A DNA stretch of 64,000 bases, from assembly GCA_016935525.1 (NCBI GenBank), contig JAFGQU010000007.1, forward strand, positions 9,057 to 73,056, written 5' to 3'. The notes beneath the pieces are model-generated. The model saw only the letters and a list, made by a program, of their open reading frames with translations. It searched no databases and was not told the origin of the DNA. The DNA comes from Candidatus Omnitrophota bacterium. Lineage in GTDB: Bacteria; Omnitrophota; Gorgyraeia; Duberdicusellales; 4484-171. This document shows positions 22,839-23,095 of the stretch, one piece after another; the first letter of the stretch is position 1; the number at the start of each line of letters is the position of its first letter. The position numbers and the translations under genes are program-made.

Positions 22839-22866
22839 TTGCAAATGCCCGCCATGTTGTTATAAT
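22839..22866 (+). promoter_or_regulatory. sigma70-type promoter TTGCAA-N16-TATAAT for the gap operon
   Basis: hexamers read directly from sequence. Confidence 0.6.
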
Positions 22867-22874
22867 ACACCTTC

Positions 22875-23095
22875 GAATGAGACTTAGATTCACACGACCG
22901 CCAGGGAAGTGTGAATCTGTAGTCGAATTCGACCCTTGACACAATGGATATTGCGTCAAGGGTTTAATTCACAGACGTTTATGGGCTATCCTTGACACAA
23001 TGGATATTGCGTCAAGGATTTAATTTGCGCATGTGGCTTATGTGCACCCGCTTTGCTCGTTTCATAAGCCACGCGCTCATTAAAGGAGGTATCCG
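22875..23095 (+). promoter_or_regulatory. structured 5' leader of gap: 5' stem-loop, two 28-nt palindromes CCTTGACACAATGGATATTGCGTCAAGG, and a pre-RBS hairpin GTGGCTTATG..CATAAGCCAC
   Basis: 10-bp hairpin 22886-22918; palindromes 22934-22962 and 22990-23017; hairpin 23033-23072; conserved GCTCATTAAAGGAGG before the ATG. Confidence 0.55.

Follow-up and report, generated by a model that had tools for sequence, protein, structure and literature searches.

The structured gap leader of an Omnitrophota genome as a probable local copy of a dispersed palindromic DNA element

A stretch of 64,000 nucleotides from a Candidatus Omnitrophota bacterium (contig JAFGQU010000007.1, positions 9,057 to 73,056; hereafter the window) carries an MFS transporter gene followed by gap-pgk-tpi, and the spacer in front of gap is filled with palindromes and hairpins. 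Do these structures control gap, or are they a local instance of something found elsewhere? A preliminary description of the sequence had proposed a gap-specific leader, in which two copies of a 28-nt palindrome are operators for a dimeric repressor and a hairpin before the ribosome-binding site (RBS) is an RNA switch. The promoter, the 10-bp stem, the two palindromes 56 nt apart, the pre-RBS hairpin and the RBS context that it listed are all present at their sites. With moderate confidence, we explain the leader instead as a local, partly duplicated copy of a dispersed Omnitrophota family of DNA palindromes, an insertional element comparable to REP/BIME repeats or to miniature inverted-repeat transposable elements (MITEs), and not as a regulator of gap. 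This element takes up all of the spacer from a stop codon to the following Shine-Dalgarno (SD) sequence or ATG, and both filled and empty sites exist.

Anatomy and distribution of the repeat family

The gap leader is built from three kinds of module, namely a central palindrome (P1), a three-helix hairpin downstream of it (P2), and a P2-type hairpin in inverted orientation upstream (P2'; Table 1). The palindrome CCTTGACACAATGGATATTGCGTCAAGG is present in two identical copies. The complete P2 at 23018 comprises helix a (TTTAAT/ATTAAA), helix b (GCGC/GCGC), an AT bulge and helix c (GTGGCTTATG/CATAAGCCAC), and its internal loop is TT/TC where the family consensus is TC/TC. Helix c closes the hairpin GTGGCTTATG-N20-CATAAGCCAC at 23033-23072, with a loop of 20 nt and not the 24 nt given before; GCTCATTAAAGGAGG follows at 23075-23089, and the gap ATG lies at 23096. 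The 10-bp stem, in which AGATTCACAC (22886-22895) pairs with GTGTGAATCT (22909-22918), sits within P2', whose minus strand reads TCGAAT-TC-GAC...GTC-TC-ATTCGA (GTCGAATTCGAC...GTCTCATTCGAAGG). What had been called a 5' stem-loop is the top of this divergent, inverted hairpin. By eye, the truncated P2 part between the two P1 copies has about 60% similarity with the beginning of the complete P2. With P2' and the doubled P1 read in this manner, the gap leader takes the form P2' - P1 - (linker and truncated P2 start) - P1 - P2, which would amount to about one and a half element copies.

Table 1. Modules and neighboring signals at the two window sites (window coordinates; R1 is the covariance model of P2)
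Feature	Position	Strand	Basis or remark
Sigma-70-like promoter, TTGCAA-N16-(TG)TATAAT	22839-22866	+	10 of 12 consensus matches; just outside the left end of the element
P2', inverted and divergent P2-type hairpin	22873-22932	-	Reverse-complement reading fits the family layout; too divergent for R1
P1 copy A, 28-nt palindrome CCTTGAC-N14-GTCAAGG with inner CAAT/ATTG stem	22934-22961	.	Pattern match
Linker GTTTAATT and truncated 5' part of P2 (CACAGACGTTTATGGGCTAT)	22962-22989	+	Sequence
P1 copy B, identical to copy A	22990-23017	.	Pattern match
P2 hairpin, helices a to c, 20-nt loop	23018-23084	+	R1 match (23018-23091), 71 bits, E 1e-12
SD GGAGG (23085-23089) and gap start codon (23096-23098)	23085-23098	+	Filled and empty sites suggest flank, not element
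P1 third copy, CCTTGAC...GTCAAGG with longer inner stem-loop GGGTTAC/GTAATCC	45963-45998	.	Pattern match
P2 hairpin of a half-element (P1-P2, without P2')	45999-46058	+	R1 match (45999-46065), 73.7 bits
SD GGAGG (46059-46063) and ATG (46073) of the yacL-like gene	46059-46075	+	Sequence

The promoter, with a TG in front of its -10 hexamer, is plausible, and it gains support from conservation: its 16-nt spacing and sequence are kept in three loci whose GAPDH is 93-97% identical to that of the window (L199, L200 and L202; loci recovered in our searches carry L numbers). Just 5' of the left end of the element, the motif ACCUUC (22868-22874) is complementary to the gap SD GGAGGU (23085-23090) and is paired in the minimum-free-energy fold. 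The predicted transcription start lies about 6-8 nt after the -10 box, and most of ACCUUC would stay untranscribed.

A second site in the window lies between radA and a PIN-TRAM (yacL-like) gene, where the hairpin and the RBS context GCTCATTGAAGGAGG span 46014-46063. The preliminary description had recognized this recurrence with compensatory changes, correctly in substance; the stem is longer than described, with three stacked helices, and the third P1 directly 5' of the hairpin had been overlooked. Both window P2 copies share helix a (TTNAAT/ATTN'AA), a 2x2 internal loop, helix b (GCRC/GYGC), a 2-nt bulge and a helix c of 10 bp, and they differ by three compensated changes, one in each helix: TTTAAT/ATTAAA against TTCAAT/ATTGAA in helix a, GCGC/GCGC against GCAC/GTGC in helix b, and GTGGCTTATG/CATAAGCCAC against GTCACTTATG/CATAAGTGAC in helix c. 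Each P2 abuts a P1, and GGAGG comes right after helix a. Chance is excluded by the three P1 pattern matches in the window against 0.00 in shuffles, together with folding z-scores of -7.8 and -5.7 for the two sites relative to shuffles. The window shares synteny with two Omnitrophota loci, L083 and L095, whose proteins are 48-58% identical to its own.

The same modules are dispersed far beyond this window. A genome scan with one genome per species and the pattern CCTTGAC-N(5-30)-GTCAAGG-N-TT-N-AATT returned at least 116 stretches, for an estimated 28 or so chance matches expected in a complete scan of the collection. Nearly all of the stretches come from Candidatus Omnitrophota metagenome-assembled genomes (MAGs) or from element-bearing MAGs with the label Planctomycetia. 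R1, a covariance model of P2 built from an alignment of 48 hairpins (A1), found 200 P2 hairpins in 99 of the 116 loci, from 51 MAGs, among the matches listed; most of the 17 loci without a match belong to other phyla (Scytonema, Clostridium, Litchfieldia, Dysgonomonas and others). Both window copies were part of the R1 seed, so their scores in Table 1 are high by construction, and independent support for them comes from their agreement with the 46 other seeds and about 150 non-seed matches. As a negative control, R1 had no match in 424 kb from 80 unrelated gap loci, which a metagenome scan with the GAPDH protein had supplied and which are all distant (at most 69% identity). Viral contigs gave two chance pattern matches, both without a P2 by R1, and a separate viral scan with a P2 pattern gave none. 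Searches of the window against Rfam, in gathering and E-value modes, returned for the leader structures only chance miRNA-like matches far below threshold, and four canonical element loci returned only a tRNA. No description of these repeats was found in the searchable literature on Omnitrophota, genome papers included. The repeat family is abundant across this uncultured phylum. Many 'uncultured Planctomycetia' MAGs (L002, L007, L009, L015, L021 and others) carry canonical copies and share gene context with Omnitrophota MAGs; the label may be imprecise, or the element may reach beyond Omnitrophota.

The canonical unit is a dyad, P2'(inverted)-P1-P2, in which each hairpin of about 65 nt points away from the center. 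Complete P2'(-)-P1-P2(+) units number 71, with P1 lengths clustering at 22-24 and 42-45 nt, and half-units (P1-P2) and composites are also seen. The consensus runs from ...CATAAGTnnnnnGnCTGAATTTGAC through P1 and RTTNAATT-CGCAC..ACTTAYG..loop..CRTAAGT..GTGCTCATTN'AA to GGAGG N5-9 ATG. Within P2, helix a (TTNAAT/ATTN'AA) is followed by a TC/TC internal loop, kept in 179 of the 200 copies, then by a 4-bp helix b, a bulged A, a helix c of about 10 bp (ACTTAYG/CRTAAGT) and a tip that varies. All four bases occur at the linker position N, and the closing base N' covaries with it, closure being complementary in 40 of 50 copies for C, 4 of 6 for G, 34 of 55 for T and 9 of 15 for A at N. In the alignment of 48 hairpins, 96.9% of the cells of 20 pairs are paired and 15 of the 20 pairs have changed on both sides; none of 500 shuffles reaches the observed values, controls slid out of register pair 31-46% of cells, and RNAalifold independently returned an identical structure. 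By this alignment, by RNAalifold and by the R1 matches, the pre-RBS hairpin is a real, covarying and recurring structure, and the stem differences do covary once more copies are aligned.

At the center, P1 forms a hairpin whose sequence varies between a CC at its start and a GG at its end. Other palindromes in this position include CCCCGCCCTTT.../...AAAGGGCGGGG, CCCCGCCC.., CCAGCACTAATTT... and CCCCACACCAATTGC...; the number of bases between the fixed 7-nt arms clusters at 9 and at 28-30, with intermediates, apical loops begin at about 3 nt, and one P1 loop reaches about 80 nt. CCTTGAC-type hairpins are sometimes nested inside a P2. Since P1 varies in both sequence and loop length, it is neither an operator nor a general -35 box. 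The dimer operator proposed for the 28-nt palindrome was accordingly dropped: half-site spacing and sequence are not fixed, and unrelated palindromes replace it in other copies. Helix a has a polarity, being mostly TTTAAT or TTCAAT on the start side of genes and mostly TCAAAT or TAAGT on the stop side. The two arms of one element differ in the sequences of helices b and c, and we rejected a single long foldback with P2' as the reverse complement of P2 on that basis. A small forward open reading frame (ORF) starting in P2' (GGAGG-TCAA-ATG) was also rejected, as it is not general and its ATG is, by eye, lost in many copies.

Smaller variations occur within individual units. A GC-rich small palindrome, CCTGCCTGCCGGCAGGCAGG, and variants of it are nested in P2 loops or lie between P1 and P2 in several MAGs (L009 5437-5522, L040 4537-4556, with copies in L047, L068 and L108), and it looks like another insertable palindromic module. 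Two paralogous copies in one MAG (DPIG01; L102 5430-5531 and L114 3115-3215) share an unusual helix b, ATGC/GCAT, and are separated by two fully compensated changes (G/C against C/G in helix a, T-A against C-G in helix c) with few others, which suggests fast arm-to-arm correction or strong selection.

Placement, pairing constraint and turnover

The position of the hairpins relative to genes is precise. A gene start lies just past the hairpin in 73 unambiguous cases, with the ATG at +9 to +17 from the end of helix a when an SD is present or at -2 to +1 when there is none, and a gene end lies beside it in 54 cases, with stop codons clustering at -8 to +6. These positions at the hairpin edges mean that the element fills the whole stop-to-start spacer. 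Of the units whose flanks were fully classified, 43 separate co-directional genes, 3 separate convergent genes and 1 separates divergent genes; the element thus does not depend on gene starts as such. In 66 of the 96 start-side copies helix a is followed within a few bases by an SD-like motif, with 0-2 nt between the helix and GGAGG, and the SD core is never part of P2. Judged by their N-termini, start-side genes include those for the ribosomal proteins L2, L6, L14, L21, L27, L29, L31, L35, L7/L12, S2, S5, S8 (twice), S11 and S20 (twice), as well as GroEL, GroES, DnaK, HU, ACP, ATP-synthase subunits, RecA, MreB and FabF/FabZ; NCBIfam confirms L31, DnaK, GroEL, MreB and FabF. The start-side set looks enriched in highly expressed genes, as judged without a background frequency.

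Whether such pairing is maintained in RNA or in DNA can be read from its mismatches. Structures selected in one RNA strand tolerate G·U pairs and do not tolerate A·C pairs. Across roughly 4000 pair cells of the 200 P2 hairpins, we counted 3803 Watson-Crick pairs, 48 G·U, 52 A·C and 56 other mismatches. Start-side copies, where the mRNA carries the modelled strand, have 12 G·U against 20 A·C, stop-side copies 18 against 15, and the inner stems of P1 15 against 18. The internal control was the set of 29 distinct tRNAs that ARAGORN called in these loci, with 599 Watson-Crick pairs and 28 G·U against 0 A·C (Fisher p = 4e-8 against P2). Equally low G·U and A·C imply a strand-symmetric constraint, with pairing kept in DNA or on both strands and not in mRNA, and the base counts thus point to a constraint on P2 pairing at the level of DNA. 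The suggestion that the hairpin occludes or exposes the RBS as RNA fares poorly for the same reason; in addition, GGAGG lies outside the helix, no conserved pairing that competes for the SD was seen, and the same hairpin stands beside stop codons and between convergent genes.

Traces of insertion are found at the ends of the units. Exact direct repeats of at least 8 nt abut both ends in 6 of the 71 units, against 0.29 expected from mismatched-flank controls, and repeats of at least 7 nt do so in 9 of 71, against 1.1 expected. Examples are CTAACCAAC (L099), AAAAAGAGG and GAAAAG(TAA) (L040), and AGGAGGT(T), a duplicated SD, which flanks elements in L064, L112 and L076. The longest, of 18 nt (21 nt by eye), is in L041, where the last codons and stop of rpsN (S14) are repeated before rpsH (S8). 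CCTCC, the reverse complement of the SD, is found after 13 of the 67 hairpins on the stop side and after none of the 96 on the start side, a pattern to be expected if insertion leaves a duplicated SD on the upstream side. At one L040 position (6150-6450), the element apparently lies inside the 3' end of an ORF: the frame now enters P2' and stops at an element-internal TAG, while a duplicated GAAAAGTAA and the former downstream codons are located after the element.

Equivalent spacers differ in content from one lineage to the next. The S14-S8 spacer holds a canonical element in L041 and L006, 8-mer-periodic hairpins in L009, L070 and L062, and a plain 40 nt in L116. Between yacL and ispD there is an element in L095 and a GTCACA/TGTGAC hairpin in the window, and between radA and yacL the window has an element that L083 and L095 lack. 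For gap itself, relatives were recovered by protein search, and their GAPDH identities are given relative to the window. L199 (97%) has the promoter and the SD...ATG context of the window with only 47 nt between them, and neither P1 nor P2; L200 and L202 (93%) have the promoter with different hairpins; L203, L205 and L206 (84-85%) have bare spacers, ...TTTGAAAGGAGGAAGT..ATG. L204 (84%) carries a short-loop P1 and a P2 (67.6 bits) just 5' of AAGGAGGAA, a sequence common to L203, L205 and L206. The gap locus is therefore polymorphic for filled and empty sites (L204 against L203, L205 and L206; the window against L199), which indicates that the SD belongs to the target and not to the element, and that the structure of the gap leader is lineage-specific. 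The element in L204 is apparently an independent insertion.

Weighing the explanations

In the explanation that we favor, the element would have inserted into a short spacer that was already there, in some cases with a duplication of 7-18 nt of target sequence (the SD included), and would turn over quickly between lineages. Its hairpins would be selected or generated in DNA, either as single-strand hairpins or cruciforms recognized by an enzyme or by arm-templated copying. Transcription from the promoter in front of the gap leader would then produce a long, structured 5' untranslated region that ends shortly before the SD, with GGAGG and AUG accessible, and for gap the transcribed element would be a largely passive, possibly stabilizing passenger and not a switch.

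Several observations weigh against an insertional element. Flanking repeats accompany only about 10% of the units, and their length varies from 7 to 18 nt. At paired positions, identity between copies is 0.67 within a MAG and 0.645 between MAGs, and pairs more than 90% identical make up 3.4% of within-MAG and 0.6% of between-MAG comparisons; such low within-MAG identity is unlike a recently active MITE or REP family. Among the 116 loci, which are a small sample, no long P2'...P2 unit with an internal ORF was found that could be an autonomous copy, and no transposase, RAYT or recombinase was linked to the element in these loci, whole genomes being outside the scan. The conserved asymmetric features (TC/TC and the bulged A) and the start/stop polarity argue for a selected function, and with ribosomal-protein, chaperonin, HU, ACP and ATP-synthase genes as neighbors, the hairpins could benefit highly expressed mRNAs. 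The divergence of the copies, the missing enzyme, the minority of variable repeats, the conserved interruptions and the polarity of helix a together leave room for a role, secondary or even primary, at mRNA ends.

That role would be gene punctuation at the RNA level, which we regard as possible yet rather doubtful. The cassette would mark transcript boundaries, with P1 or its junctions as a site of processing or termination, P2' capping the 3' end of the upstream mRNA and P2 capping the 5' end of the downstream mRNA, so that abundant messages are stabilized while the SD stays unstructured. Hairpins placed exactly at stop codons and exactly before the SD or ATG fit this well, as do the enrichment of ribosomal-protein, chaperone and housekeeping genes on the start side (sites within ribosomal-protein operons included), the phylum-wide motif with its conserved internal loops and polarity, and the very stable predicted folds; the different hairpin types in the S14-S8 spacer across lineages suggest that some hairpin is wanted there. 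The pairing itself, however, shows no G·U tolerance, unlike tRNAs from the same DNA, and the element also lies between convergent genes, is flanked by duplications and is polymorphic for presence, with orthologous sites of close relatives empty and without visible replacement (L205, L206, L116). There is no U-tract terminator signature, and intrinsic termination was rejected, as no site with a GC-rich hairpin and U-tract overlaps the element. An alternative at the DNA level, which we hold only tentatively and consider unlikely, is a phylum-specific gene-boundary system maintained by the host and not selfish DNA, for example one with a dedicated protein that recognizes hairpins or cruciforms, or one that generates palindromes by arm-templated copying.

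Two readings center on promoter-proximal control. P1 might be a promoter, possibly bidirectional, with CCTTGACA as a -35 box on both strands and the P2 hairpins as 5' leaders of divergent transcripts. TTGACA is exact in most P1 copies of the CCTTGAC class, the short-loop arrangement TTGACA-N16-TTNAAT resembles a promoter, and the dyad has outward-facing hairpins. Yet many elements use P1 palindromes without TTGACA (CCCCGCCC.., CCAGCACTAATTT.. and CCCCACACCAATTGC.. among them), the long-loop class has no -10-like hexamer at 16-19 nt (mean best scores of 2.9 and 2.87 in the direction of gene starts and of gene ends, respectively), TTNAAT has no A at position 2, where the -10 consensus has one, and covaries with the sequence it pairs with, and the neighbor of most left arms is a co-directional gene at its 3' end. 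We therefore consider this promoter very improbable. We give still less credence to the original picture of a gap-specific leader with repressor operators and an RNA switch. In its favor are the duplicated palindrome beside a conserved promoter, and a hairpin that abuts the SD and has compensatory changes between the window copies. Against it, the same modules stand before or after dozens of unrelated genes in 51 MAGs, P1 is variable and the SD core lies outside the helix, Rfam has no match, and orthologous gap genes do not share the hairpin and palindromes in their upstream regions, both being missing from the leaders of the closest relatives and, with the exception of L204, from those of all relatives with 84-97% GAPDH identity.

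Among known systems, the element is best grouped with interspersed palindromic intergenic repeats in general and with no named family, because at least one defining feature of each named family failed or was left open. REP/BIME sequences of enterobacteria and pseudomonads, including RAYT-associated REPIN doublets, are short imperfect palindromes present in many copies, extragenic and often intercistronic, and frequently arranged as inverted pairs around a central motif (REP - linker - inverted REP). Their stems evolve through paired Watson-Crick changes, and they are believed to work in single-stranded DNA, or to be copied in that form, and to influence mRNA stability as a side effect. The Omnitrophota element shares the repeated intergenic palindromes, the inverted pairing around a center and the paired stem changes. 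It differs in the longer P2 (about 65 nt), with three helices and fixed TC/TC and bulge interruptions, in a center that is itself a variable hairpin, in filling the stop-to-start spacer and abutting the SD, in copies that are as divergent within a genome as between genomes, and in conservation over many MAGs of a phylum and not within a genus. It also has flanking direct repeats in excess over chance, and to our knowledge IS200/RAYT-type mechanisms produce none.

Like MITEs and modular repeats (Correia/NEMIS, BOX, RUP, ERIC), the element is a non-coding insertion of about 100-250 bp with inverted symmetry at its ends, apparent target duplications and sites that are filled in some genomes and empty in others; it too lies beside genes and inside operons, contains nested modules, and may be co-transcribed and fold into hairpins. 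Unlike them, it consists of three separate hairpins and not of one foldback of two ends, its flanking repeats are not of constant length, its intragenomic identity is low with each copy carrying its own compensated changes, and its position immediately 5' of the SD is precise and recurrent; we know of no parent insertion sequence. Integron attC sites offer a structural likeness only: a short helix on the outside, then a central spacer without pairing, an inner helix that carries an extrahelical base, and a tip that varies, a structure kept while sequence varies, sites between co-directional genes, and a constraint at the DNA level. P2 does not generally fit the R-box consensus RYYYAAC/GTTRRRY, however, and the element is flanked by core housekeeping genes and not by cassettes, with hairpins inverted around P1. 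If transcribed, P2 would be a stable hairpin upstream of an exposed SD, like the ompA 5' stem-loop and other 5'-UTR stabilizers or RBS insulators; ompA-type stabilizers are gene-specific and under RNA-type selection, whereas this element is dispersed, lacks G·U tolerance and is found equally at gene ends.

Other repeats of the window and meaning of the family

In most of the other spacers of the window there are long hairpins, each arm of which repeats words of 7-8 nt in tandem (1460-1545, 5085-5165, 18343-18371, 20770-20860, 24103-24200, 29612-29745, 30815-30925, 37295-37380, 47052-47140, 55720-55880, 58432-58460 and 60430-60509). Words such as GTCACAnn/nnTGTGAC, AGTCGnTA/..CGACT, GGGTnnn/nnnACCC and CCCGTnn/nnACGGG form helices of 4-7 bp with regular small internal loops between them, the same kind as in the S14-S8 spacer of L009, L070 and L062. 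Possibly the same spacer-filling phenomenon takes a second form in these hairpins. Elsewhere, a c-di-GMP-I riboswitch aptamer matches at 61754-61945 (+) with 37.5 bits against an Rfam gathering score of 35, and a 40-nt repeat, CAGCCTGCCCCACGC.GTGCGGGGCTGACA.GCAGGCGGA, which contains a GC-rich palindrome, occurs at 529-568 and 10210-10249 with 95% identity.

The comparison removes a false lead, since there is no evidence here for a riboregulator or an operator of gap. For the discovery of RNA motifs in general, it shows that strong covariation alone is no proof of RNA function, and that counting G·U against A·C mismatches, with tRNAs as an internal control, is a cheap way to tell a DNA constraint from an RNA constraint. 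R1 can be used as a marker for binning and annotation, several of the carrier MAGs being labelled 'Planctomycetia'. The family stands at exact gene boundaries, even within ribosomal-protein operons, and changes in pairs without G·U intermediates, and it offers a tangible way into the question of how intergenic DNA is built in Omnitrophota genomes. If the tentative idea of a host-maintained boundary system read in DNA is true, that system would organize transcription units or mRNA ends in these ultra-small cells, and the periodically interrupted 8-mer hairpins of the other window spacers would be a second form of it.

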